A stretch of 64,000 nucleotides of DNA from positions 32,390 to 96,389 of the forward strand of contig JAUWQI010000001.1 in NCBI GenBank assembly GCA_030611085.1, given 5' to 3'. Origin of the DNA: Dehalococcoidia bacterium (GTDB taxonomy: Bacteria > Chloroflexota > Dehalococcoidia > GIF9 > AB-539-J10). A program made the translations under genes and the position numbers. The notes below the pieces were generated by a model. The model searched no databases. It was not told the origin of the DNA and worked only from the letters and a program-made list of their open reading frames with translations. Positions 13,739 to 63,146 of the stretch are shown one piece after another; position 1 is the first letter of the stretch, and the number at the start of each line of letters is the position of its first letter.

Positions 13739-14662
13739 TTACGCTCCTGAGGTGGCTCCGAACTCTACCCTTACCCCCTGTGGCACAGCATAGCCAATAA
13801 ACTTGTAAGCCAGTTTGGCTAATAGAAAAGCGCAAGCCACTGGACCCTCTCGGGGGCAGAATTCCATTAAATCAAAGCCAACTATGTGTTTATGAAGGGC
13901 TACCGACTTTATTATAGTTAAGACCTGCTGCCATTGCATACCACCTGGTTCAGGAGTGCCCACTGCGGGCATAATGGAAGGGTCTAAAACATCGACATCT
14001 ATAGTGACATAAACATCCTGGCTGAGCGAGTCCAGCATTTTCTCTGTGGAAATTGTAGTTGATAGCAAATCAGACATGTAGAAAGGAGTCATCTTATTCT
14101 GGCTCAAGAATTGTTTTTCTTCTCGACTGAGGCTGCGAATTCCCACTTGAACAATAGGACAAAGTTCGAAGATACGGTGCATAACGCAGGCTTGGCCATA
14201 TTTGGTGCCTAAATACTTATCTCGAAGGTCAGTGTGAGCATCCAGTTGTAACACGGAAAGTCTGGGGAATGCCTCTTTAAAGGCTCGAGCTGTGCCTAGA
14301 GAGAGAGAATGTTCTCCGCCTAGCATCACCACAAATTTCCCCTTTTGTATTAAACCCTTAGTTAAGTTGTAGACCCTTTCTATCATATCTTTGGGGCCAC
14401 TTAACACTGGCTCTACCTGAGGCAGGGTATGGATACCAACTTTATATATCTCACGGTCTAATTCTAAATCGTAGAGCTCTAGATATTGGGAGGCGTCGAT
14501 GATAGCCTGAGGGCCATCCCGAGTTCCGCTCCGCCATTCGACAGTGCTATCGTAGGGAACAGGCAGAATTACAGTCCTGGCTTGTTGCAAATCTGAATAG
14601 GGTGGTGATAATCCAGCGAAGGTACGCTGTAGGAATGCCTCTTCATTCCCCATGATAAACAA
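13739..14662 (-). CDS. speB: agmatinase / ureohydrolase family
   Basis: arginase-fold motifs GGEHS, DAHTD, VTIDVDVLDP. Confidence 0.85.
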   Translation of the reverse strand: MFIMGNEEAFLQRTFAGLSPPYSDLQQARTVILPVPYDSTVEWRSGTRDGPQAIIDASQYLELYDLELDREIYKVGIHTLPQVEPVLSGPKDMIERVYNLTKGLIQKGKFVVMLGGEHSLSLGTARAFKEAFPRLSVLQLDAHTDLRDKYLGTKYGQACVMHRIFELCPIVQVGIRSLSREEKQFLSQNKMTPFYMSDLLSTTISTEKMLDSLSQDVYVTIDVDVLDPSIMPAVGTPEPGGMQWQQVLTIIKSVALHKHIVGFDLMEFCPREGPVACAFLLAKLAYKFIGYAVPQGVRVEFGATSGA

Positions 14663-15041
14663 AGTTCACGACATTGCTAGTTGCAAGTTCTGTTTGCGGA
14701 CAGTCTCTATCAATCAGGCAGGTTCTTGATTTAATTAGTCGGAATGCGACTTGAAAATCCTTAATCGCTTTCTCGGCATCGAAATCCTTGCATGAGAAAA
14801 CATCTATATTGACATAATTCTGCTCAACAAAAGTATGGATGCTGATATGACTCTCAGCAATAAAAACAAATCCCGATATGCCCCAATCCTCTAGTTTTGG
14901 TTCTCCATATCTAAGCACGTAGGGTGGTGAAATTCTGGTCATACCAATTCTGGCGGGATAGCTTTCCAGCCAGTTTCGAAGATAATTCTCATCCTGGAGA
15001 AGTTCTTGATTATCAGAATAGCCATCTATAATTAGGTGCAT
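14643..15041 (-). CDS. speH: pyruvoyl-dependent S-adenosylmethionine decarboxylase proenzyme (class 1) homolog
   Basis: ESHISIHT self-cleavage motif; 132 aa; overlaps speB start. Confidence 0.8.
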   Translation of the reverse strand: MHLIIDGYSDNQELLQDENYLRNWLESYPARIGMTRISPPYVLRYGEPKLEDWGISGFVFIAESHISIHTFVEQNYVNIDVFSCKDFDAEKAIKDFQVAFRLIKSRTCLIDRDCPQTELATSNVVNFVYHGE

Positions 15042-15138
15042 TGGACCTCCTTCAAATCTGGCGTGCTCCCCGTAGCGCGGAGGCTTGTCCTCCGCTAGAG
15101 TTAACCCAAGACATCACCTCTCTAAAAGCTAATAGCTC

Positions 15139-16434
15139 TCAGCATTTGATTGCAGGGCGAGCTAAATATTTTCCCACTATCGCCATGGCACAATATTTGC
15201 CACACATGCTGCAAGTATTTCCAGAGCTAGGAATCTTGTTATGGACTTGTCGTGAGAGCTCTGGGTCTAAGGACAATTTAGCTTGAGTCTCCCAATCAAG
15301 GGTCTTGCGGGCTCGGGCTATTTTTTCATCTTGCTCCCGAGCACCTTTTACTCCCTTAATAATATCACCAGCGTGAGCAGCTATGCGGGAGGCAATTACT
15401 CCTTGTTTTACATCCTCAACATCGGGAAGGGAGAGGTGCTCTGTGGGGGTAACATAGCACAAGAAATCTGCACCTGCAGCAGCAGCGATGGCTCCCCCGA
15501 TGGCACCAGTAATATGGTCATAGCCGGCACCTATATCGGTCACTAGAGGACCTAAGACATAAAAAGGTGCTCCATGGCAGAGGCTCTTTTCTAGTTGGAC
15601 ATTAGTAGCCACTTGGTCCAGCGGCAAATGCCCAGGTCCTTCTATTATGGACTGAACGCCAGCTTCTCGGGTACGTTTCACTAACTCTCCAAGGATGATT
15701 AGTTCTTCGACTTGAGCTCTATCAGTGGCATCGGCGATGCATCCTGGGCGTAAGCCATCACCCAAACTCAAGGCGAAATCATATTTGTGGGCTAAGTCCA
15801 ACAAACGGTCATAATATTGGTATAAAGGATTTTCCTTCTCATTATGCAGCATCCAGCCAATGAGAAAGGCACCTCCTCGGGAGACTATATCGGTTATTCT
15901 CCCTTGGTTTCTAAGTCTTGCCACCGATGCCTGAGTTACTCCGCAGTGAACGGTCATGAAATCAACGCCGTCCCTGGCTTGTTCTTCGATTACATCGAAA
16001 ATCTCGTCCACGGTCATGCTCACGATAGCCCCGTGTTTTGCAATGGCTTCGATGCCAGCTTGATAAACAGGCACAGTCCCTACAGGCACGGTGCTAGCAT
16101 TAATGATAGCTCTTCTGATAGCTGGAATATCGTTGCCAGTGCTCAAATCCATGACTGTATCGCTACCAAATGCAATAGCAGCTTGTAATTTTCTAAGTTC
16201 TGTATCTACATCAAAAGAATCTGGGGATGTGCCTATATTAGCATTGACCTTTGTCTTTAGTCCCTTGCCTATGCCACAAGGGGCTAGATTTGCATGGTTG
16301 GCATTGGCTGGAATTATGATTTTACCCTCGCTCAAACCTTGTAGGATAAAATCAATTTCTACCCCCTCCTTTTCAGCCACATGCTTCACCTGGGGTGAAA
16401 CAATTCCCTTTCGAACTAGCTCTAATTGAGTCAT
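15139..16434 (-). CDS. thiC: phosphomethylpyrimidine synthase ThiC
   Basis: full-length ThiC including the C-terminal CSMCG[KP]xxC Fe-S motif. Confidence 0.95.
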
Positions 16435-16710
16435 TTCCCTACATCTTTCTCATTATAGAGGCTGTTTAATTTTGTTTTTCCGTTTGATTTTGGGTATTTT
16501 GGGGAGTCTTCACCCCCAAATTTTTGTAGTTGCCTGATTTATCAGGCTTAGCCCAATAAATTGGGCAACTACATTTTTTAAACAGCCTCATTATAAGGTA
16601 ACCCTAATTTGAATTATGAAAATATTTTGTATAAGCTTAGAAGGTAAAGTTAGCATAAAATTACTCCCAGATGCAAATTTGAGGGATGGAGATTGTTTAG
16701 CAACCCATTT

Positions 16711-16850
16711 GTCATTCTGAGCCCTACGGGCGAAGAATCTCTCTTAGACTCTTCGCGGAGCCTGTCCTGGTGAGCCGAAGCTCTGAATGCAATGAAGAGG
16801 AGATTCTTCAGTCGCTTCTCTCCCTCAGAATGACAAGAAGCGAAGGGCGC
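16711..16850. repeat. family-1 palindromic element, full-length copy (TIRs GTCATTCTGAG...CTCAGAATGAC, inner GAAGAATCTC...GAGATTCTTC)
   Basis: ~140-bp MITE-like foldback in the thiC / gamma-CA spacer. Other intergenic copies: 3312-3376, 9660-9753, 13561-13615, 25272-25445, 26703-26877, 33247-33362, 36040-36122, 50200-50252, 62248-62304. Confidence 0.85.
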
Positions 16851-16917
16851 AGAGTAACATTTATCACTTATTAATAAACACTCTCGGGATGCAATCTAGT
16901 TATCAACTGGAGGTAGA

Positions 16918-17439
16918 ATGATTAGAAGTTTCAGTGGCATGACACCAAAAATAGCGGAGTCGGCTTTCGTTAGCGAAGCTGCCTATGTTGTTGGCGATGT
17001 GGAGATTGATGGGAATTCCAGCGTGTGGCCTGGAGCAGTAATCAGGGGTGATTTTGGCAAGATAAAAATTGGCAAGAATACCGCTGTGGAGGATAACTGC
17101 GTTATCCATTCAGGGTCACCTTCGGGAATCGTGAATGTTGTGATTGGAGATAATGTAGTTATCGGTCACGGTGCCGTTAGCAATTGCCGCAAGATTGGGA
17201 ACAATAGTCTTATAGGCATGAACTCCACTATTCTCCATGATGCTGAAATTGGTGACTTTTGCGTGATTGCTGCTGGATGCTTGGTGCGGCAAGGAATAAA
17301 AATCCCCAATGGTAAGTTAGTTGCTGGCGTTCCTGGCAGAATTAAAGGAGAGGCTTCGGCAGAACAGTTATGGTGGACACAAAACAACCCAGTACTTTAT
17401 CCCAAGCTAGCTAAGCAATACAAAGAACAGGGGCTCTAG
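16918..17439 (+). CDS. gamma-carbonic-anhydrase-family hexapeptide-repeat protein
   Basis: left-handed beta-helix repeats; VWPGAVIRGD and HG motifs. Confidence 0.8.
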   Translation: MIRSFSGMTPKIAESAFVSEAAYVVGDVEIDGNSSVWPGAVIRGDFGKIKIGKNTAVEDNCVIHSGSPSGIVNVVIGDNVVIGHGAVSNCRKIGNNSLIGMNSTILHDAEIGDFCVIAAGCLVRQGIKIPNGKLVAGVPGRIKGEASAEQLWWTQNNPVLYPKLAKQYKEQGL

Positions 17440-22797: not shown

Positions 22798-22844
22798 CCT
22801 TTCAGGTCAAATTTAGCCATTAGTCAGACAGCGATAAGAATATT

Positions 22845-23054
22845 TTAGATGTTTAGTAGGAATGGAGATGAATCCCCTTCTAGAGCTTCGAAATTTATCT
22901 CTATATTGCCGATTAGCCGAGGGGTCTGCCCCACAAATTCGAGCTCTATGTCATCTATGTCTATAACGAAATTTCTCTCCCACAATCTGGCTCTAGCTTC
23001 GCCCTCTTCTCCAGAGGTGAGAGCTAATCCTACTTTTTCCTCTGACATTGCCAT
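22845..23054 (-). CDS. small motif-family protein P4 (start at MAMSEEK)
   Basis: contains VIDIDDIELEFVGQTPRLIGNIEINF variant of shared motif; RBS GAGTGAGGTG. Confidence 0.45.
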   Translation of the reverse strand: MAMSEEKVGLALTSGEEGEARARLWERNFVIDIDDIELEFVGQTPRLIGNIEINFEALEGDSSPFLLNI

Positions 23055-23058
23055 CACC

Positions 23059-23241
23059 TCACTCTCTCTCAATTTTTCTCATTGGCTCCATATGGAACTT
23101 AATCTTTCCCATCAAGTCAAGCGACTTCCCAAAAAATTTACGACCCACTTCCTCCATATCCAGCTCCTCAGTCGTTCCCTCATCAACAGCCCTGTTTAAG
23201 TAGTCAAATACCGACTGCCGACCTCTCTGCCCCCTTTTCAT
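23059..23241 (-). CDS. small motif-family protein P3 (start at MKRGQ)
   Basis: LDMEEVGRKFFGKSLDLMGKIKF motif; RBS GGGAGGT; overlaps next gene by 4 nt. Confidence 0.5.
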   Translation of the reverse strand: MKRGQRGRQSVFDYLNRAVDEGTTEELDMEEVGRKFFGKSLDLMGKIKFHMEPMRKIERE

Positions 23242-23261
23242 TGCTTTACCTCCCGCGCCAT

Positions 23262-23290
23262 AGCAGGCTGAGTCCCGGGGCACAGCCTGC
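23262..23290 (-). terminator. intercistronic hairpin (GCAGGCTG...CAGCCTGC) between P1 and P3 genes
   Basis: 8-bp GC-rich stem, no clear T-tract; attenuator or processing site. Confidence 0.35.
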
Positions 23291-23326
23291 TATGGATTTA
23301 ATTTTCAAGGCATGCCGCCTTAGTGT

Positions 23327-23503
23327 TTACTTGGGTTTCTTTAAGGTTCCCAGGCTGATGTTTACCTTCCCCAACAACTTGAGGGAGCGTCCAAAGAGCT
23401 TGCCGCCAACATCTTCCATATCAATGTTGAGGTCGGTTTCCTTATCGGTAATCTTGTCTACCAGGTCAAGGACTGGTCCCTGTTCTTTGTCTACTTCTGC
23501 CAT
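23327..23503 (-). CDS. small motif-family protein P1 (58 aa, below ORF-track cutoff)
   Basis: my own translation: MAEVDKEQGPVLDLVDKITDKETDLNIDMEDVGGKLFGRSLKLLGKVNISLGTLKKPK; RBS AGGAGGG 7 nt upstream. Confidence 0.55.
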   Translation of the reverse strand: MAEVDKEQGPVLDLVDKITDKETDLNIDMEDVGGKLFGRSLKLLGKVNISLGTLKKPK

Positions 23504-23604
23504 TGTTCTTACCCTCCTTATAAATTTTCTATAATTTGCAAGCTATGCCCCCGGGACGCGGCTTACTATAGGGGTTAATCTTCAATGTAACTTTCTCTCA
23601 GTAT

Positions 23605-24024
23605 TTACTTGGACTTCTTCAAGGTTCCCAGGTCAATGTTTACCTTCCCCAGCAATCTTAAGGAACGCCCAAAGAGTTTGCCACCGACATCTTCAATATT
23701 GATGTTCAGGCTGGTCTCCTTATCGGTAATCTTGTCTATCAGGTCGAGCACTGGTCCTTGCTCTTTTTCTACTTCTGCCATTGTTATTACCTCCTCTGGT
23801 ATTTTTTCTATTTCCACTGCTTCTTCTACCGCTGGTACTTCCTCTATCAGCTTCTTCGCTGCTGCTATAAATGTGCCGCCTCTATCTCCGACTATCCCTT
23901 CGAGCTCCTCAGGGCTGGCTACTGCTACAGCCTCGACCGTCATATACCCGGCTGCAGCCAGTTTTTTTGCCGTTGTCGGACCGACCCCGGCAACCTTCTG
24001 TAGTTCCTCTTCAGTGTCAATCAT
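23605..24024 (-). CDS. helix-hairpin-helix domain fused to a P1 paralog
   Basis: N-terminal VAGVGPTTAKKLAAAGY...PEELEGIVG HhH; C-terminal 58 aa ~85% identical to P1. The fossil RBS of the duplicated gene (GGAGGT) is translated as EEV. Confidence 0.6.
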   Translation of the reverse strand: MIDTEEELQKVAGVGPTTAKKLAAAGYMTVEAVAVASPEELEGIVGDRGGTFIAAAKKLIEEVPAVEEAVEIEKIPEEVITMAEVEKEQGPVLDLIDKITDKETSLNINIEDVGGKLFGRSLRLLGKVNIDLGTLKKSK

Positions 24025-24398
24025 CTTAGCATTACCTCCTTTCTAAATATATTTTAGAGAATTAAACCTCGTGCCTTCTGAAGCCATTCCACAGGCTTTT
24101 TGAAGACACTAGCCACTTAATTGACTAGAGCACTGATTGTGCTGAGACATTCTCCTCTAATAGTTCAGAGGAGAATACATCCGAAATGCTGAAAACCCTG
24201 CCTTTGGTATTAAGAGACCTGGGGATACCGACTTACAGACCTTCAGCATTTGCTTAGAGCTGGCTAATGGTGCCAGCGAAAAGAGCAATACCTGTTCTAT
24301 AGGCATTGCTGATAATGAGTGATAAGGATTGTTCTTCACTTCCTTAATCACTGTGCTAAAAATTGCTTTCATCTTCACCCTTTTCTCTCTTCCCTTTC

Positions 24399-25683: not shown

Positions 25684-26670
25684 ATGCAACAGGAGCTAAA
25701 TAGATTTCTTCACTATCTTGAGGTTGAGAAGGGATATTCCCAAGGCACTATCGAGGCATATCGGCTTGATATAGGAAAAGGGCTATTCCCATTCCTGCAT
25801 GAGATTGAGATTGCCACGCCTTCGGCTCGCAATGACAGGGTAGAAGAGGTCACGAAGGATGACATCCGAGCATATTTGGACTATCTAGCTGTTGAAAGGG
25901 CTAACTCCGGTGTTACCAGAGCACGCAAGCTAGCAGCAATAAAGTCATTCTTCAATTACTTGGTGGAAAATGAAGGGCTTGAAGCAAACCCGGCAGCTTC
26001 GGTAAAGAGTCCCAAGATACCTGAAAAGGAGCCGGTGTATCTGAGTGAGGAAGAGTGCCTTCGTTTTTTACAGATAATAGCCCAAAAAGCCAGACCACAG
26101 GTTAGAGAGCGGGATATGGCAATAGCTATGCTCTTGCTTCATACTGGGCTAAGGGTATCGGAGCTAACAAATCTGAAATTTTCTAATGTTGATCTTGAGA
26201 GAAGTCAGATAAAAATAACCAGGAAAGGGAGTAAAGAACAATATCTTCACCTGAATGGTGAAGCAGTAAGCGTATTGGTAAATTACCTTCATAGCTATCC
26301 ATATGACAGGAGATTGCCACGCTTCGCTCGCAATGACAGGGGGGAGATGGCTCGCAATGACGGAGGACTTTTGCCACAGGCTCAAAACGGCAGGTTTTTT
26401 GTAGGAACCAAAGGTCAAAATCTGAACCGCACTTATGTTTATAGTGTGGTGCGAAGATACTTAGAACTGGCGGGTATCAATAAAGATAAGCAGGGACCTC
26501 ACCTCTTGAGACATACCTTCTGCACCAGGCTACATCAGAAGGGAGTCTCACCCTTCGTGATAAAGGAACTCGCTGGTCACAAAAGCCTTAATACAACCAT
26601 GAGATATATCAAAATAGAAAATAAGGAGCAGTCTGAAGCCCTTGATAGACTGGAGTTTGGTATTCTTTAA
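25684..26670 (+). CDS. tyrosine site-specific recombinase (XerC/XerD/phage-integrase family)
   Basis: N-terminal SAM-like domain; catalytic R...HxxR...Y (LLRHTFCT...TTMRY) motifs; carries two in-frame family-1 repeat insertions. Confidence 0.85.
   Translation: MQQELNRFLHYLEVEKGYSQGTIEAYRLDIGKGLFPFLHEIEIATPSARNDRVEEVTKDDIRAYLDYLAVERANSGVTRARKLAAIKSFFNYLVENEGLEANPAASVKSPKIPEKEPVYLSEEECLRFLQIIAQKARPQVRERDMAIAMLLLHTGLRVSELTNLKFSNVDLERSQIKITRKGSKEQYLHLNGEAVSVLVNYLHSYPYDRRLPRFARNDRGEMARNDGGLLPQAQNGRFFVGTKGQNLNRTYVYSVVRRYLELAGINKDKQGPHLLRHTFCTRLHQKGVSPFVIKELAGHKSLNTTMRYIKIENKEQSEALDRLEFGIL
26306..26365. repeat. family-1 element fragments in frame in integrase (second of two; the other at 25812-25838)
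   Basis: tandem CTCGCAATGACAGG / CTCGCAATGACGG inside ORF encoding ARNDRGEMARNDGG. Confidence 0.8.
26585..26653 (+). repeat. direct repeat DR-L (3' end of integrase gene)
   Basis: 69 bp, 68/69 identical to 27639-27707. Confidence 0.9.
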
Positions 26671-26984
26671 GAAATCTTAGCTAGTTAGACAATTTCGGTA
26701 AGGTCGCTTCGCTTAGGGCTTTTCACCCTCGCAATGACAAAGGGGGAAGGCTCACAATGACACTTTTGAGGGCTGAGGGAGTCCTCTCCCTCAGCATGAA
26801 GGAACAGATTCCTTCATGCCTCAGATTGCCATGCCTTCGGCACGCAACTGCACTCAGGGCTTCGGCTCAGGGTGACATAGAGAACATTTTTTCTATTTTA
26901 CCACTAAATATGCTCAAAAAGAATATTCGAATGAGTTAAACTAGAGGACATTTCTAAAGGGTCTTGGCACCTCTACTAATAGAC

Positions 26985-27013
26985 TTGACAATTATGGTGG
27001 ACAGCTGTATCAT
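26985..27013 (+). promoter_or_regulatory. sigma70-like promoter for mazEF (TTGACA-17 nt-TATCAT)
   Basis: perfect -35 and good -10 about 30 nt upstream of the mazE RBS (TGGAGGT). Confidence 0.5.
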
Positions 27014-27043
27014 CATTGTAGATACATATATGGAGGTACTCCA

Positions 27044-27286
27044 ATGCAAAGACGCATCCAAAAGTGGGGAAACAGCCTGGCGCTGCGTATCCCGAAGCCA
27101 TTTGCCCAAGAAATAGGTCTCGACCGTAATGTGCCGGTTAATGTGTCGCTGGAAGACGGGAGACTCATTGTGGTACCTGTCGCTGTGACCTCCATGACTC
27201 TCGAACGGCTATTGGAGCAGATCACAGAGGACAATATCCATCGCGAAGCTGATACAGGTCTGGCAATCGGTGAGGAGGTATGGTAA
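27044..27286 (+). CDS. mazE: MazE/AbrB-type antitoxin
   Basis: MQRRIQKWGNSLALRIPK SpoVT/AbrB swapped-hairpin N-terminus. Confidence 0.8.
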   Translation: MQRRIQKWGNSLALRIPKPFAQEIGLDRNVPVNVSLEDGRLIVVPVAVTSMTLERLLEQITEDNIHREADTGLAIGEEVW

Positions 27287-27651
27287 AAGGTAAAGTATAT
27301 GTTCCCAACCGCGGTGATGCCATCTGGATCACTTTGAATCCTCAGGCTGGCTACGAACAATCCGGGCGTCGGCCAGCAGTTGTCCTCTCACCAAGGATAT
27401 ACAATGGCAAGGTAGGGCTTGCTATTCTGTGCCCCATCACGAATCAAATCAAAGGTTATCCTTTTGAGATTCTCATCCCTTCTGCTCTAGCCGTCAGTGG
27501 AGCGATCCTGTCTGACCAGGTGAAGAGCCTGGATTGGCGAGCGCGGGAAGCTGAATGGATTTGCAGACTACCGGACAACACTATTGCGGAGACATTTCAG
27601 AAACTGAGCACACTATTGTTTCAGGGAGCGAATGCCTTAATACAACCATGA
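27280..27651 (+). CDS. mazF: MazF/PemK-family endoribonuclease toxin
   Basis: VPNRGDAIWITLNPQAGYEQSGRRPAVVLSP PemK signature; 3' end runs into a direct repeat. Confidence 0.85.
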   Translation: MVKGKVYVPNRGDAIWITLNPQAGYEQSGRRPAVVLSPRIYNGKVGLAILCPITNQIKGYPFEILIPSALAVSGAILSDQVKSLDWRAREAEWICRLPDNTIAETFQKLSTLLFQGANALIQP

Positions 27652-27707
27652 GATATATCAAAATAGAAAATAGGGAGCAGTCTGAAGCCCTTGATAGACT
27701 GGGTTTG
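27639..27707 (+). repeat. direct repeat DR-R (copy of integrase 3' end downstream of mazF)
   Basis: 69 bp; mazF reading frame runs into it. Confidence 0.9.
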
Positions 27708-27747
27708 CTGCGGTGAACTTGTGCTGTTAAGATAATGCGGCGGTATT

Positions 27748-29475
27748 TTACATTCTCTCGGGGGCTGTCATGCCCATGAGGTGAAGAACCCTGGCTAAAA
27801 CAATCTGAGTTGCTCTGACCAACTTAAGCCGAGCTTTAGTCAGCTCTTCATCCTGGGAAATGACTCTGCATTGCTTATAAAAGCTGTGGAAAACGGTAGC
27901 TAAATCTTGAGCATAGTAGGGTAGATGATGAGGCTCAAGGGTAGTTGCTACCTCTTCTATTATTTCGGGGAGAAGTATTAAGCGGCGAATTAAAGTTAAC
28001 TCTGGCTCAGTTGAGAGCAGAGAAACATCGCCTTGGGCATAATCTATCCTCTGCTGCTTGGCTAACCTGAGAATACTGGCAATCCGAGCATAAGCATATT
28101 GAACATAATACACGGGATTATCCACTGATTGCTTCTTAGCTAGCTCTATATCGAAGTCCATCTGGCTGTCAGCAGAGCGAGAAAGGAAGAATAAGCGGCA
28201 AACATCTGGTCCTACTTCATCAATCAACTCCCGCAGGGTAACGATGTCACCGCTACGTTTAGATACTTTGACCATTTCCTTCCCACGCCGCAGAGTAACT
28301 AACTGACAGATTATTACCTTGAGATGTTCAGGGGCTACTCCTAGAGCTTTGAGCATCGCTTTCATCCGGGGAACATGTCCCTGGTGGTCAGCCCCCCAAA
28401 TATCAATTACAGTGCTGAATCTTCGCTCCAGAAATTTGTTGTAGTGATAGGCAATGTCAGAGGCAAAATAAGTAGGAGAGCCATCACTACGCAGCAGAAC
28501 ATTATCTTTATCCTCGCCTAAGGCAGTCGATTCAAACCAGGTGGCGTTTTCCTTCTTAGCTACATAGCCTCCGTCTTGTAGCAATGCCATGGCTTTATGG
28601 TACTGAGATCCTTCCCCTTCACTTTGTTCAGGGTCAGGACGATAAAGGCTTTTTTCACTAAACCAAACATCAAAGTCAACATTTAATAGCTTAAGGTCTT
28701 CCTTAATTCCCTGTATTATCCGGGCAAGTCCAATTTTAGCTAATTCTGAAATTGCTTCGCCTTCGGCTCGCAATGGCGATTCACCCTCACCCAACCCTCT
28801 CCCTTCAAGGGAGAGGGAAAATTTATCACCTTGCTCCTGAACAATTTCCTTCGCCAGGTCAATCATGTAATCACCAAGATAGCTGTTCGGGAGCATGGCA
28901 ACCTCTTTGCCTAAGCACTGTTGATAGCGTGCATAGAGGGAGCGGCCGAAGCTGTCTATCTGGTTGCCCATATCATTTACATAATATTCCTTTTCTACTG
29001 AGTAACCAGCAGCGCTGAGTACGTTTGCTAAGGTGCTACCTAAGACAGCACCACGTCCATGGCCTACATGGAGAGGACCGGTGGGGTTGACACTAACAAA
29101 CTCAAGTTGAACACGACTGCCTTTGCCTGATAGGCTAGCGCCATATGATTCACCAGTTTCCAGAATCGATGTCACTTGCCCACATAGCCAGTCATCCCGC
29201 AAGTTGAAGTTGATAAAACCTGGCGAAGCAATCATAACCTTATCGAATTCGGAAGGAGGCGATACATGCTCGTATATTCTTTCAGCTATAGCCATAGGTG
29301 ACATCCTCATACCACGAGCTAGTTTCAGGGGGAGGCCTGAGGCAAAATCTCCGTGCTCTGGGTTCTGGGGATGTTCCACGGTTATTTCAGGCAAAGTTGT
29401 GGTAACAAGCTCACCCTGTTGTTGCGCTTCAAGCACTGCTTCTCGGAGACAAGCAGCTAATTTTTCCTTAAGCAT
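27748..29475 (-). CDS. argS: arginine--tRNA ligase
   Basis: full-length ArgS with HVGH-like PLHVGHGRGAVLG motif and DALR anticodon-binding end. In-frame family-1 repeat at 28755-28820. Confidence 0.95.
   Translation of the reverse strand: MLKEKLAACLREAVLEAQQQGELVTTTLPEITVEHPQNPEHGDFASGLPLKLARGMRMSPMAIAERIYEHVSPPSEFDKVMIASPGFINFNLRDDWLCGQVTSILETGESYGASLSGKGSRVQLEFVSVNPTGPLHVGHGRGAVLGSTLANVLSAAGYSVEKEYYVNDMGNQIDSFGRSLYARYQQCLGKEVAMLPNSYLGDYMIDLAKEIVQEQGDKFSLSLEGRGLGEGESPLRAEGEAISELAKIGLARIIQGIKEDLKLLNVDFDVWFSEKSLYRPDPEQSEGEGSQYHKAMALLQDGGYVAKKENATWFESTALGEDKDNVLLRSDGSPTYFASDIAYHYNKFLERRFSTVIDIWGADHQGHVPRMKAMLKALGVAPEHLKVIICQLVTLRRGKEMVKVSKRSGDIVTLRELIDEVGPDVCRLFFLSRSADSQMDFDIELAKKQSVDNPVYYVQYAYARIASILRLAKQQRIDYAQGDVSLLSTEPELTLIRRLILLPEIIEEVATTLEPHHLPYYAQDLATVFHSFYKQCRVISQDEELTKARLKLVRATQIVLARVLHLMGMTAPERM
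28755..28820. repeat. family-1 element fragment inserted in frame in argS
   Basis: GCTCGCAATGGCGATTCACCCTCACC plus CTCTCCCTTCAAGGGAGAGG hairpin inside a continuous ORF. Confidence 0.8.
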
Positions 29476-29787: not shown

Positions 29788-32379
29788 TTAGCTCCATTCG
29801 ACTTCCTTAGGCCATACTTGGCTTAGTTGCTGACCTAGAAGTTGATGTTCCGCTGTTTTGAAATCAGGGTCGCTTTGGAAAATACTTATTGCCTCTTGCC
29901 GAGCCAATTCTAAGAGATGCAAGTTAGACAGCTTAGCTACTTTAAGGTCGGGCAAGCCACTTTGCTGAGTGCCAAAAAACTCCCCCGGGCCTCTTAGCTC
30001 TAAGTCTTTCTCCGCTAGAGCGAAGCCATCGTGGATTTTCTCCATTAGCTTTAGCCGCTCCTTTACCTCGGGCGAAAATTTCCCAGGAATAAGTATACAA
30101 TAACCTTGCTCTTTGCCTCGGCCTACTCTTCCCCTGAATTGATGAAGCTGAGATAAGCCAAAATGGTCAGCACCTTCTATCACCATAACTGTAGCTTTAG
30201 GCACATCAATACCGACCTCTATTACTGATGTTGACACCAGGATATCAATTTCCCCAGCACGGAAGTGGCGCATCACCTTCTCTTTGTCCTCAGCGTGCAT
30301 TTGGCCATGAAGCAATCCCAGCCTTAAATCTGGGAAAATCTCTTTAGATAGGCGTTCGTATTCTGTTGTAGCCGCTTTTGCCTCAGGCAATTCCGATTCT
30401 TCGACTAGTGGACAAATAATGAAGGCTTGTCCTCCATTGCTAACCTGGCGGTGGAGGAAACCATAAACCTTTCCTGTATATCGTGGCTCAATACACTTCG
30501 TTTTTACCACCCGTCGTCCTGGAGGTAACTCATCAATAACTGAGAGGTCGAGGTCTCCATAAAGTGTCAGCGCCATAGTTCGAGGAATAGGTGTAGCTGT
30601 CATAACCAACACATGAGGATTGAACCCCTTTTGCCGGAGCTTCTGGCGTTGCAACACGCCAAAGCGATGTTGCTCGTCTATCACTGTCAAGCCCAGCTTG
30701 TTAAATTCTACCCCTTTTTGAATGAGGGCATGAGTGCCAATAACAATATCAATTTCACCTTGCGTGATCTTACGGTGTAAATTCTCCTTTTCACCTTCCC
30801 TAAGGCTGCCGATGAGAAGAGCGATAGTAAGCGGTCGTGGGAGAAATTCTGAAAAGGATGCAAGCGAGGAATCTCGCTCCTCGCAATGACAGGTTTGGGT
30901 GCTGGCTTTAGCTAGATATTCGCTGATACTAGCGAAATGCTGTTCGGCTAATACTTCAGTGGGGGCCATCAGTGCTCCTTGATAGCCATTGGCAACAGCT
31001 ATTAGTAGAGCCAAAACGGCGATTACGGTTTTACCACTACCTACCTCGCCTTGAAGAAGGCGTGACATAGCTTTTGGGCGTTTGAGGTCGATTGAGATCT
31101 CCTCCAGCACTCGCTCCTGAGCCCGAGTTAGGGTGAAAGGAAAGCAGTGTAAAAATTTGCTAATAAGCTCCGGGTCTATATTAAAGGCATTGCCCGGCTG
31201 ACTTTCTTGCCAGTCGCGCTTTCTTCTCAAGACACCTAGTTGGAGAAGGAATAACTCGTCAAAGGCTAACCTCTCCCGTGCTTCCTCTGCTATCAATTGG
31301 CTATCAGGGTAATGAGCTTGCTTGATTGCTTCAGGGAGGTCTGGCAGGCGGCAGTGATTTTTTATATTTTGGGGCAAGAAATCACTCACTTGCCATAGCC
31401 AGCCGTCAATAGCTTCCTTCGTCCATCCCCTCACTCGCCTGGGATACAAGCCTCGAGTGAGAGGATAAACGGGAACCAATCGGCCGGTGTGAATTAACTC
31501 TTTATCTTCAAGTAATTCCCATTCCGGAGATTCAAAAACCTTCTGCCCTTTGAATAAACTTACTGTGCCACTAATTACCACTTTAGCATTGGTAGGGAAT
31601 TTCTTAGCTAGATAAGGTTGGTTAAACCAAACTACTCTGATGTTTCCTGTCTCATCACCCACAATTGCCTCTGTGCCTCGCCGATTGCCAAAAGTGGCCA
31701 CTCTGGCTTGCCATACTGTGGCTACAATAGTTTGTTCCGCATCTTCCCTAAGTGCGGCGATGAACTTCCTTTGGCTATAGTCAACATAGCGTCTGGGGAA
31801 AAAATAAAGCAAGTCACGCACTACCCTCACATTAAGTTTGGCAAATTTAGCAGATGCCTTAGGCGTTATACCTTTGATGATAGTTATGGGTGAATCTAGT
31901 CTTTCATTTTTCTTTTGGGGCTGTGACTTAGCTACTGCTGTTACGCTGATCTGAAGCCCTGAGTCCTGGTCCTGACGATAGGAAGGATCTGAAGGAACTG
32001 AAGGGGCAAGCGAAGGGTCTCTAGATTCTTCGCTACGCTCAGAATGACAGGAAGCGAAGGGCTCAGAATGATAGATAGGAGTCCTTTCCTTTTCCAGCTT
32101 ATCTAGCCAGTCGAAAATGCTTGTCACCCATCTGTGGCGCTCATTTATACTGTGGGAACTGTAGTTGTAGCTAGCCAATCCTAATTCATCAAAGTCGGCT
32201 AAAAGTTGTGAGGTCAACTCCTTCGTTTTCACTTCGTTCAGACTCAGGACAAGGCTTTGCCTGATTCGCTCCGCCTGCTTGTGAAGATATTTATCTAGCC
32301 CGCCGATAACTGCTTTATCGGCATAACCTTTCTTGCATTCCAATTCAAGAACATTTCGTAGCGAGTCGATGTTTAGCAT
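29788..32379 (-). CDS. recG: ATP-dependent DNA helicase RecG (expanded, 863 aa)
   Basis: wedge domain, Walker A GSGKT, DEQHRFG, helicase C motifs; two in-frame family-1 repeat insertions. Confidence 0.9.
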   Translation of the reverse strand: MLNIDSLRNVLELECKKGYADKAVIGGLDKYLHKQAERIRQSLVLSLNEVKTKELTSQLLADFDELGLASYNYSSHSINERHRWVTSIFDWLDKLEKERTPIYHSEPFASCHSERSEESRDPSLAPSVPSDPSYRQDQDSGLQISVTAVAKSQPQKKNERLDSPITIIKGITPKASAKFAKLNVRVVRDLLYFFPRRYVDYSQRKFIAALREDAEQTIVATVWQARVATFGNRRGTEAIVGDETGNIRVVWFNQPYLAKKFPTNAKVVISGTVSLFKGQKVFESPEWELLEDKELIHTGRLVPVYPLTRGLYPRRVRGWTKEAIDGWLWQVSDFLPQNIKNHCRLPDLPEAIKQAHYPDSQLIAEEARERLAFDELFLLQLGVLRRKRDWQESQPGNAFNIDPELISKFLHCFPFTLTRAQERVLEEISIDLKRPKAMSRLLQGEVGSGKTVIAVLALLIAVANGYQGALMAPTEVLAEQHFASISEYLAKASTQTCHCEERDSSLASFSEFLPRPLTIALLIGSLREGEKENLHRKITQGEIDIVIGTHALIQKGVEFNKLGLTVIDEQHRFGVLQRQKLRQKGFNPHVLVMTATPIPRTMALTLYGDLDLSVIDELPPGRRVVKTKCIEPRYTGKVYGFLHRQVSNGGQAFIICPLVEESELPEAKAATTEYERLSKEIFPDLRLGLLHGQMHAEDKEKVMRHFRAGEIDILVSTSVIEVGIDVPKATVMVIEGADHFGLSQLHQFRGRVGRGKEQGYCILIPGKFSPEVKERLKLMEKIHDGFALAEKDLELRGPGEFFGTQQSGLPDLKVAKLSNLHLLELARQEAISIFQSDPDFKTAEHQLLGQQLSQVWPKEVEWS
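30863..30895. repeat. family-1 element fragment in frame in recG
   Basis: CTCGCAATGACAGG core inside ORF. Confidence 0.8.
32009..32075. repeat. family-1 element in frame in recG (second site)
   Basis: GATTCTTCGCTACGCTCAGAATGACAGGAAGCGAAGGGCTCAGAATGA inside ORF. Confidence 0.85.
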
Positions 32380-37473: not shown

Positions 37474-37617
37474 CTAAATCTGTCTCAAAGCCTGATAAAT
37501 CAGGCAACTACACTAAATATTAAGGTGAAATCTTGATACTTTCCCCTCCTATTTGTCAACCAGTTTCCACCAAACAAGTTCAAGCAGGTTACTACAGCAG
37601 CTGCACGCACGAGGAAT

Positions 37618-62350: not shown

Positions 62351-62926
62351 GTGCCAATGCGAAGTTATAGCTCCGTTAATTTAAATGCCCTTTGGTTCTT
62401 AATAGCAGCGAATGTTTTAATCTTTATAGTTACCCTGATAAGACCAGAAGCAATCTATTTTCTTGGCTTAACACCCGCGATTCTCTTACACCAACCCTGG
62501 ACTATGATAACTAACCTCTTTGTCCACGCGGGCTTTGGCCACATCATATGCAATATGATAAGCCTGTATTTTCTGGGAAGCTTCGTGCTCAGACTAATCG
62601 GGGAAGGAAGGTTTCTATTAACATATTTCCTTGGAGGAATAGTGGGGAATATACTTTTTATATTTCTTGCTCCCTCCCTTTCAACGGGTATAGGAGCTTC
62701 AGGAGCTATTTTCGCCCTTGGTGGAGCCCTGGCAATGATAGCTCCAAAGTTGCGAGTTCTTCTATTCCCTATTCCCATCCCAGTTCCACTTTGGGTAGCA
62801 ATTATAATCTTCTTTATAATTTCCTTCTTCCCGGGTGTAGCATGGCAAGCTCATCTTGGAGGTTTGGGTTTAGGTCTCCTGGCTGGCTACTTCTTTAGGA
62901 GAAAAAGGCGACCCTATTATTTTTAG
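62351..62926 (+). CDS. rhomboid-family intramembrane serine protease
   Basis: GASGAIFAL (Ser) and AHLGG (His) in TM helices; 3' end lies inside a tandemly duplicated family-2 repeat. Confidence 0.8.
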   Translation: MPMRSYSSVNLNALWFLIAANVLIFIVTLIRPEAIYFLGLTPAILLHQPWTMITNLFVHAGFGHIICNMISLYFLGSFVLRLIGEGRFLLTYFLGGIVGNILFIFLAPSLSTGIGASGAIFALGGALAMIAPKLRVLLFPIPIPVPLWVAIIIFFIISFFPGVAWQAHLGGLGLGLLAGYFFRRKRRPYYF

Positions 62927-63100
62927 ATGAGGCATGTAGAGACGTAGTTGCCCAATTTATTGGGCGATACTGCCTGATAAATCAGGCAACTACTACAAAG
63001 AACGGGGTGAAGCTTATTATTTTTAGATGGGGTGTGTAGAGGCGTAGTTGCCCAATCTACTGGGCGATACTGCCTGATAAATCAGGCAACTACTACAGAA
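62907..63100. repeat. tandem duplication (2 x ~97 bp) of a family-2 element plus the last codons of the rhomboid gene
   Basis: units 62907-63003 and 63004-63100 about 90% identical. Confidence 0.8.
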
Positions 63101-63146
63101 ATTTGGATGAGGAATCAGAATTAAACAGCCGTTAAATCTCTGCAAG

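Follow-up and report, generated by a model that had tools for sequence, protein, structure and literature searches.

A mazEF module enclosed by two copies of a housekeeping xer gene end in a Dehalococcoidia bacterium, read as a 3'-end displacement

How does a toxin–antitoxin (TA) pair come to be enclosed by two almost identical copies of the end of a neighbouring gene? The question is raised by a 64,000-nt stretch of contig JAUWQI010000001.1 from a Dehalococcoidia bacterium (assembly GCA_030611085.1; hereafter, the window), in which mazE and mazF lie between a gene for a Xer-type tyrosine recombinase (xer) and the convergent gene argS. An earlier note on this DNA had described a cassette of about 1 kb that integrated at an attachment site within the recombinase gene, regenerated the end of that gene and might still be excisable. 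Comparison with related genomes bore out the insertion and the regenerated end; a site recognised by the adjacent recombinase was not borne out. The arrangement resembles a common accident of recombination more than a novel type of mobile cassette, and the reading that we favour, with a probability of roughly 0.55, is a one-off, homology-anchored displacement of the C-terminal (3') end of a housekeeping xer gene that brought in the mazEF module.

The original end of xer and the inserted DNA

The two copies of the direct repeat occupy positions 26585–26653 (copy 1, R) and 27634–27702 (copy 2, R') of the plus strand, and the distance from the first to the second is 1049 bp. They are identical at 68 of 69 positions, with a sole, central mismatch (A at 26624, G at 27673) that separates exact blocks of 39 and 29 nt, and the identity breaks off sharply at both edges. 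The earlier note had the 69-bp repeat, its single mismatch and the first copy right, but placed the second copy at 27639–27707, 5 nt away from its correct position. No comparable match arose in 100 dinucleotide shuffles, so chance would not be expected to produce the repeat. Apart from repeats of the miniature inverted-repeat transposable element (MITE) type, the window has no other direct repeat that is both long and near-identical. R forms the 3' part of the xer open reading frame (ORF) and holds the codons for (S)LNTTMRYIKIENKEQSEALDRL, the catalytic tyrosine included.

The xer gene itself (25684–26670, plus strand, 328 aa, its present 3' tail contributed by the insert) encodes a SAM-like N domain and a Phage_integrase domain according to Pfam, and its product aligns over the full length to Escherichia coli XerD (1a0p, the best PDB match, 3e-36), archaeal XerA and XerH. 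The best NCBIfam matches were XerC, XerD and XerA, all of them below the equivalog cut-offs. Homologues of about 296 aa and 65–82% identity are found by the thousand throughout Dehalococcoidia, and the gene upstream, which is response-regulator-like (RR), keeps its place next to xer in the related loci L005, L008 and L174. Because of this synteny, the widespread homologues and the Xer-like best matches, the gene is a core, vertically inherited and syntenic chromosomal Xer gene and not the integrase of a mobile element. It does carry two in-frame insertions of MITE type, as the earlier note had reported. The first (approximate bounds 25804–25843, net +7 aa; repeat families D1/D2/D4) appears as a BLASTP gap against the homologue P0040, and the second (26296–26373, net +25 aa) as a gap against P0040 and as a blastn gap against L011 and L174 at 26295/26374. 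The inserted peptides, confirmed against a homologue, are ATPSARNDR and RRLPRFARNDRGEMARNDGG. Despite these insertions, the conserved motifs that hold the R..HxxR..Y catalytic residues are retained, as read from the alignment rather than by mapping each residue singly, in agreement with what had been noted before.

The empty form of the locus was found in two independent contigs, L005 and L006, whose Xer is 81% identical to that of the window. Their gene order is RR–xer(+)–argS(−)–recG–fakA, with 23 nt between the stop codons of xer and argS and no mazEF. In the window, which shares the order RR–xer–argS–recG apart from the insert, argS (27748–29475, minus strand) is likewise convergent with xer and represents the ancestral right flank. 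Copy 2 and the DNA downstream of it are collinear with the xer–argS junction of L005, with an alignment score of 275 against 98 for copy 1. Moreover, if an A that is missing after 27702 is restored, the reading frame of copy 2 continues as ...DRLEFAAVNLCC followed by a stop, giving the tail (E)FAAVNLCC (LEFAAVNLCC with the preceding leucine). This tail is of the same type as that of L005 (EFGVMNL, LEFGVMNL) and those of L007, L008, L012 and L175 (EFGAINL, EFGTVNL), each closed by a stop. The collinearity with the empty site and the tail that becomes readable identify copy 2, by sequence comparison, as the resident 3' fragment of xer shifted downstream; together with the stretch that follows it (T2, 27703–27730, plus strand, collinear with the L005 tail) it is the original xer 3' end, now a frameshifted relic. 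T2 has undergone the 1-nt deletion, a change of glycine to alanine and the loss of its stop. The 1049 bp counted from the first copy to the second are an insertion. We had also considered copy 1 and its tail as the native end, as the C-termini of homologues all read ...LEFG-IL; this was dropped, since by comparison with the L005 DNA the ancestral block consists of copy 2, its tail and argS.

The insert begins with a surrogate xer tail, T1, which encodes EFGIL and a stop (26668–26670). Its DNA, AGTTTGGTATTCTTTAA, makes up the final 17 nt of the xer ORF and is followed by 29 nt of spacer; the whole (26654–26699, plus strand) is 87% identical to the xer tail and the xer–thiC spacer of two other relatives, L011 and L025, so that the insert brought in a real piece of the xer end from another allele. 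T1 and T2 may represent allelic tail types, G-IL against G-A-I-N-L. The left junction reads ...GGTCACAAAA-R-AGTTTGGTATTCTTTAAG and the right one ...TTTCAGGGAGCGAAT-R'-GTTTGCTGCGGTGAAC; since the left joint lies within xer homology, the reading frame was regenerated seamlessly. Beyond T1 and its spacer lie an array of the MITE-type repeats called family 1, delimited by the repeat families of the window (26700–26885), an AT-rich spacer (26886–26977) that matched none of the fetched loci and nothing in the rest of the window, and the mazEF unit. Scanned against Rfam, neither the insert nor the spacer of L011 gave a match above threshold; for the MITE array there were weak matches below it. The same structure is present in contigs from three ENA samples (ERZ4220937, ERZ4220366 and ERZ4219663), one of which differs by three single-nucleotide polymorphisms (SNPs) in argS, and the occupied form, with the mazEF insert, was seen in four of four contigs of the source study.

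The mazEF unit and its joint with the repeat

The mazEF unit covers 657 bp on the plus strand (26978–27634), and its homology to three loci from other contigs stops at precisely these bounds, that is, just upstream of the −35 box and 7 nt beyond the native stop of mazF. Nucleotide identity over the unit is 92.5% for L091, 90% for L093 and 83% for L092; all three lie in unrelated contexts and are accompanied neither by the 69-nt repeat nor by xer-like sequence. A promoter-like site, TTGACA-17-TATCAT (26985–27013, plus strand), matches at 11 of 12 positions in a promoter scan. It precedes mazE (27044–27286, plus strand; Pfam PF04014, E = 7e-10; NCBIfam best match MazE) and mazF (27280–27651 as now read, plus strand, 123 aa; PF02452, E = 4e-24; NCBIfam best match MazF, whose score of 117 bits falls short of the cut-off of 120), and the two genes overlap by 7 nt. 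By these family assignments the pair is a type II toxin–antitoxin system, MazEF. The content of the enclosed DNA, with its family-1 repeat, promoter-like site, mazE and mazF, was as first described, as repeat and promoter scans, Pfam and NCBIfam all indicated.

MazF homologues end in ...LLFQ and native MazF in ...STLLFQ, with a native length of about 113–115 aa. In the window the native part of the gene runs from 27280 to 27624; the former stop at 27625–27627, TGA in L091 and L093 and TAA in L092, has become GGA, and 7 nt of native 3' flank follow. The ORF is intact and acquires an 8-aa C-terminal extension, ...FQ-GAN-ALIQP, in which GAN follows from the lost stop and ALIQP, with the new stop, lies inside copy 2. 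The chimeric C-terminus that had been predicted from the MazF frame entering the repeat is therefore real, and the TGA that became GGA accounts for it. For annotation, both this C-terminus and a 53-aa ORF that runs over copy 2 should be treated with caution, as by-products of the insertion event.

At the joint itself, the mazF flank and R' share a single G, that is, 1 nt of microhomology, and from its sequence the joint between mazEF and copy 2 looks illegitimate. Since R' follows the mazEF unit without a gap, the simplest explanation is that one event both brought in mazEF and created the left edge of R'.

The contig with the closest xer (L174, Ga0209121_10014927, 90–96% identical at the nucleotide level) and the one with the closest mazEF (L091, Ga0209121_10022697) were both recovered from JGI metagenome 3300027742 and may come from a single organism, one whose mazEF has a hicAB-like pair as its neighbour at a different locus. 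In that case, the mazEF of the window may be a relocated resident module and not foreign DNA. A locus of the L091 type (hicAB–mazEF) was sought in the organism of the window by way of the neighbouring AhpD/CMD gene, and the contig retrieved represented another context.

Proposed displacement of the xer end and competing explanations

In the scenario that we favour, the ancestral locus would have read RR–xer–argS, with xer ending in R and the T2 tail and nearly touching argS. An incoming DNA of about 1 kb, from a related or conspecific member of Dehalococcoidia, would have supplied T1 and its spacer, as the end of a different xer allele, together with MITEs and mazEF. One of its ends would have joined through xer homology, where the joint is observed to be seamless and in frame; the other would have formed an illegitimate link between the 3' flank of mazF and a point 69 nt upstream in xer, where the 1 nt of microhomology is observed. 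The product, xer–R–T1 … mazEF–R'–T2 relic–argS, would thereby hold 69 nt of resident sequence twice. Afterwards, the imported tail would have kept Xer intact, the old tail would have been free to decay (1-nt deletion, lost stop) and mazF would have come to read 8 codons further. These steps would be the work of general recombination and repair and not of a dedicated integrase. Two routes can be envisaged. Either a circular intermediate bearing a core fragment entered by a single crossover, as proposed for Rhs tips, in which case the incoming core would have been conspecific, or both copies derive from one resident sequence through homology-facilitated illegitimate recombination (HFIR) with interchromatid bridging, or through the fill-in of staggered breaks. 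As xer and argS leave no free intergenic space between them, only insertions that restored the xer end would be expected to survive, and this selection would explain the regenerated look without any specialised attachment site.

The anatomy of the locus agrees with this scenario. The attached R and the displaced R' are near-identical (68/69), and they carry different tips, EFGIL in T1 and (E)FAAVNLCC in T2. Other lineages differ from R at between 4 (L174) and about 10 of the 69 positions. Identity from edge to edge, interrupted by one central mismatch, is as expected for a recent exact duplication or for recombination between identical core fragments. Gene conversion as the source of this identity was rated unlikely, since the identity reaches both edges of the 69-nt homology; as conversion is not expected to extend that far, two origins are left, a resident duplication or a conspecific core.

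A similar anatomy is known from polymorphic toxin genes. Attached and displaced copies of rhs have identical core fragments and different tips, for which a model was proposed whereby a circle made up of core fragment, tip and the genes between them is integrated by homologous recombination (Jackson et al, 2009; PMC2935791), and HFIR was put forward for the displacement of effector genes of the type VI secretion system (T6SS) (Kirchberger et al, 2017; PMC5361080). As in C-terminal displacement of rhs, CDI (contact-dependent inhibition of growth) and T6SS genes, the 5' gene body is kept here, a new 3' tip arrives with cargo, and the old tip is found downstream with a core fragment. The gene, however, is a housekeeping recombinase and not a polymorphic toxin gene; its tips comprise only 5–9 codons with no known functional difference, and the cargo is a type II TA pair instead of an immunity gene. 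Moreover, the locus holds a single displaced tip and no array of them. We surveyed about 75 Dehalococcoidia xer loci with 6–8 kb of flanking DNA, taken from GTDB genomes and JGI metagenomes, for orphan tips beside a full-length xer and found none, so that relatives give no sign of recurrence with relics. The locus also resembles the duplications left by HFIR and by transformation, with one homologous anchor, one microhomology joint and a possible duplication of recipient DNA across sister chromatids; in pneumococcal transformation, interchromatid integration does duplicate recipient DNA (PMC3784515). Those events were, however, shown experimentally in transformable Acinetobacter, Pseudomonas and Streptococcus and had longer anchors (PMC5361080; PMC3784515), whereas the present one is read from its product.

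Several points weigh against a displacement of this kind. A donor locus of the form xer(T1)–…–mazEF was not found, and the nearest mazEF copies do not adjoin xer. If a foreign, L011-like piece of xer (about 90% identical in R) had entered by a circle crossover, about 7 differences would be expected between the copies and 1 is seen; the scenario would therefore require a donor of the same species whose xer has another tail, or else a duplicative joint. The insert is composite, with its MITEs and unique spacer, and may have been put together in several steps. Natural transformation or another form of DNA uptake is assumed for the source organism, and illegitimate joints do not typically come with a duplication as long as 69 nt. 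An apparent mosaic structure of xer (5' part L005-like, 3' part L011-like) was also considered as a sign of a crossover; we did not use it, because it is largely explained by L005 being an outlier in the 3' part, where L174, L175 and L012 are as close as L011.

The alternative that survives best, although we consider it unlikely, is an older duplication in several steps. An ancestor with the order xer–R–T1…R'–T2–argS would have arisen by local rearrangement, for instance an inversion of the xer/thiC region mediated by MITEs; gene conversion would have homogenised R and R', mazEF and MITEs would have arrived later, and the arrangement seen in L005 would have resulted from deletion. This would account for the fact that both junctions are collinear with relatives, copy 1, T1 and the spacer with L011/L025 (at a uniform 87–90%) and copy 2, T2 and argS with L005. 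It would also fit the position of thiC, which follows xer in L011/L025 and is found in the window 9 kb upstream, inverted and flanked by MITEs at the two breakpoints, as well as the scatter of T1 and T2 tails over the xer tree and the several changes in the T2 relic against one in the adjacent R'. On the other hand, gene conversion would not give identity to the very edges of the 69-nt homology, and a later insertion of mazEF, which abuts R', would have had to land exactly at the old joint. No other lineage holds both tails within 6–8 kb, in the closest relative (L174, 90–96% nucleotide identity) one tail is present and other genes lie downstream, and several independent losses would be required. 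Because of the mazEF–R' abutment, the edge-to-edge identity and the single tail in L174, we favour a recent single displacement over this older history.

The possibility that builds on the earlier note, that a circular, integrase-less mazEF cassette with the xer 3' end as its attP was integrated by Xer or by an integrase acting in trans at an attB within xer and could still be mobilised, appears slightly less probable again. Its topology is that of classical integration into a gene 3' end: direct repeats, a regenerated end, a native flank after the distal copy and an empty site in relatives are all observed. A tyrosine recombinase is encoded on the spot, the 68/69 identity would suit a population in which the element cycles in and out, and other contigs of Dehalococcoidia do contain orphan 3' fragments of xer. 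These fragments, however, begin at varied residues (231–269) and reveal no common site. The repeat shows no pair of inverted arms around a 6–8-nt spacer, only 6-nt arms at spacings of 12 and 29 nt and an 8-nt AT palindrome, and the region equivalent to R varies at third codon positions among lineages, as judged by eye and without quantification. The closest mazEF units are devoid of xer-like sequence, and the joint between mazF and R', 7 nt past the native stop and with a 1-nt overlap, looks illegitimate. A second copy of the xer 3' end was found at none of the approximately 75 other loci (0/~75). An exact search with the lineage-specific part of the repeat gave no match in JGI metagenomes or IMG/VR, and hence no attP or attB form in these collections; this is a weak argument, as the population is present only in ENA assemblies. 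Excision, finally, would now yield a frameshifted xer: recombination between the copies would leave a gene ending in ...DRLGLLR and a stop, without the nearly invariant EFG. That the module remains excisable is thus doubtful in functional terms, even if the two copies could recombine.

Integrative elements in the 3' ends of tRNA, tmRNA and protein genes likewise have direct repeats, restore the gene end and leave the native flank behind the distal repeat, but they bring an integrase of their own and a defined att core. Genes for recombination are absent from the 1-kb insert, the target gene itself is the sole recombinase gene at the locus, and neither an att-like core nor recurrence was found across the surveyed xer loci. 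Integron cassettes carry attC hairpins and are inserted at attI, upstream of a divergent intI, and the pdif modules of Acinetobacter plasmids are bounded by 28-bp XerC/XerD sites. The insert resembles both in being small, in carrying a TA pair without a recombinase of its own and in its tie to a tyrosine recombinase or Xer. It differs in that its repeats are xer coding sequence without core symmetry and that it lies downstream of the recombinase gene in the same orientation. Integron-integrase models scored far below their cut-offs against the recombinase (87 vs 265 bits and 55 vs 435 bits) and inverted-repeat scans gave no attC-like hairpin; the locus does not match an integron.

A more general version, in which Xer or a partner uses the xer 3' end as a recombination site to take up and release cassettes that lack an integrase and bear a copy of this gene end, strikes us as improbable, clearly more so than the preceding alternatives. 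If true, such self-targeted capture would account for the switch of tails and downstream genes immediately behind the LEFG codons in almost every Dehalococcoidia lineage examined, and Xer acting on the end of its own gene would be a new mechanism of cassette capture; nothing found here points to it. Lastly, an assembly artefact, with copies stemming from mis-joined strain variants or a collapsed repeat, can be dismissed as highly implausible: short-read metagenome assemblies of a MITE-rich region could invite one, but the same structure recurs in three samples, one with SNPs elsewhere, both junctions are coherent (regenerated frame, collinearity with L005), and the exact blocks of 39 and 29 nt are presumably shorter than the final k-mers typical of common assembler settings.

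Rearrangement around the xer 3' end in Dehalococcoidia

The gene downstream of xer changes from lineage to lineage: argS in L005 and the window, a FAD-oxidoreductase gene in L007, L008, L012 and L094, thiC in L011 and L025, a methylase gene and the MetRS gene in L174, and PaREP1 in L175. Judged from these alignments, nearly all close Dehalococcoidia lineages have a synteny breakpoint at the 3' end of xer, which makes it a recurrent one. In five lineages, collinearity of the xer DNA ends right after the LEFG codons, and the xer tree shows the tail types (EFGIL, EFGDL, EFGVMNL, EFGAINL, EFGTVNL and others) in intermixed order; taken together, this indicates that tail replacement has occurred repeatedly. 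The breakpoints map to 26650–26670 and 27700–27750 in the window, to L005:3250–3305 and to the xer stop in L007, L008, L011, L174 and L175. A general dif-like motif after xer was not found across the lineages, the spacer being common only to a subset of those with T1-type tails, and the GC skew in the window tracks gene orientation only and gives no terminus signal.

The thiC block lies at 14100–16950 in the window, inverted and about 9 kb upstream of xer, and directly after xer in L011 (8892–10550) and L025 (530–2320). MITE copies abut both the remnant of the xer-side spacer (26700) and the thiC-side promoter region (about 16690–16850), and the sequence suggests a MITE-mediated rearrangement of the xer/thiC region. 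A second repeat family, made up of the paired short hairpins GCCTGATAAATCAGGC and GCCCAATTTATTGGGC, occurs in intergenic positions at 62915–63110, 37490–37529 and 16551–16590, the upstream region of thiC included. Insertions of MITE type also appear in frame in other housekeeping genes, as inferred from ORF translations: one in argS at about 28747–28816 (EGRGLGEGESPLRAEGEAIS) and two in the recG ORF at 29788–32379 (HSEPFASCHSERSEESRDPSLAP and CHCEERDSSLASF). The ORFs of xer, argS and recG are all unbroken by them.

Partial copies of xer are scattered over other contigs. Orphan fragments with the 3' part only were seen at L043:8001–8264, L127:586–873, L128:6001–6288, L137:217–441 and L163:1025–1201, and N-terminal-only fragments at L123:2277–2771 and L124:514–1044. 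The L128 fragment lies next to a PGI fragment, itself truncated, and to a gene for a HicB-like antitoxin; the L043 fragment has an XRE-type helix-turn-helix gene as its neighbour. Elsewhere in the window, the minus strand at 22800–24050 holds a tandem array of paralogous small ORFs, the largest with an HHH-motif N-terminus, in which a 195-nt unit is repeated at 84% identity (23319–23513 and 23597–23791).

The locus provides a datable case of a TA module wedged between two tightly convergent essential genes, neither of which was killed. If our favoured reading holds, it would extend the anatomy of C-terminal displacement from polymorphic toxin genes to a housekeeping recombinase. For the plasticity of Dehalococcoidia genomes, it draws attention to the xer 3' end as a recurrent breakpoint.

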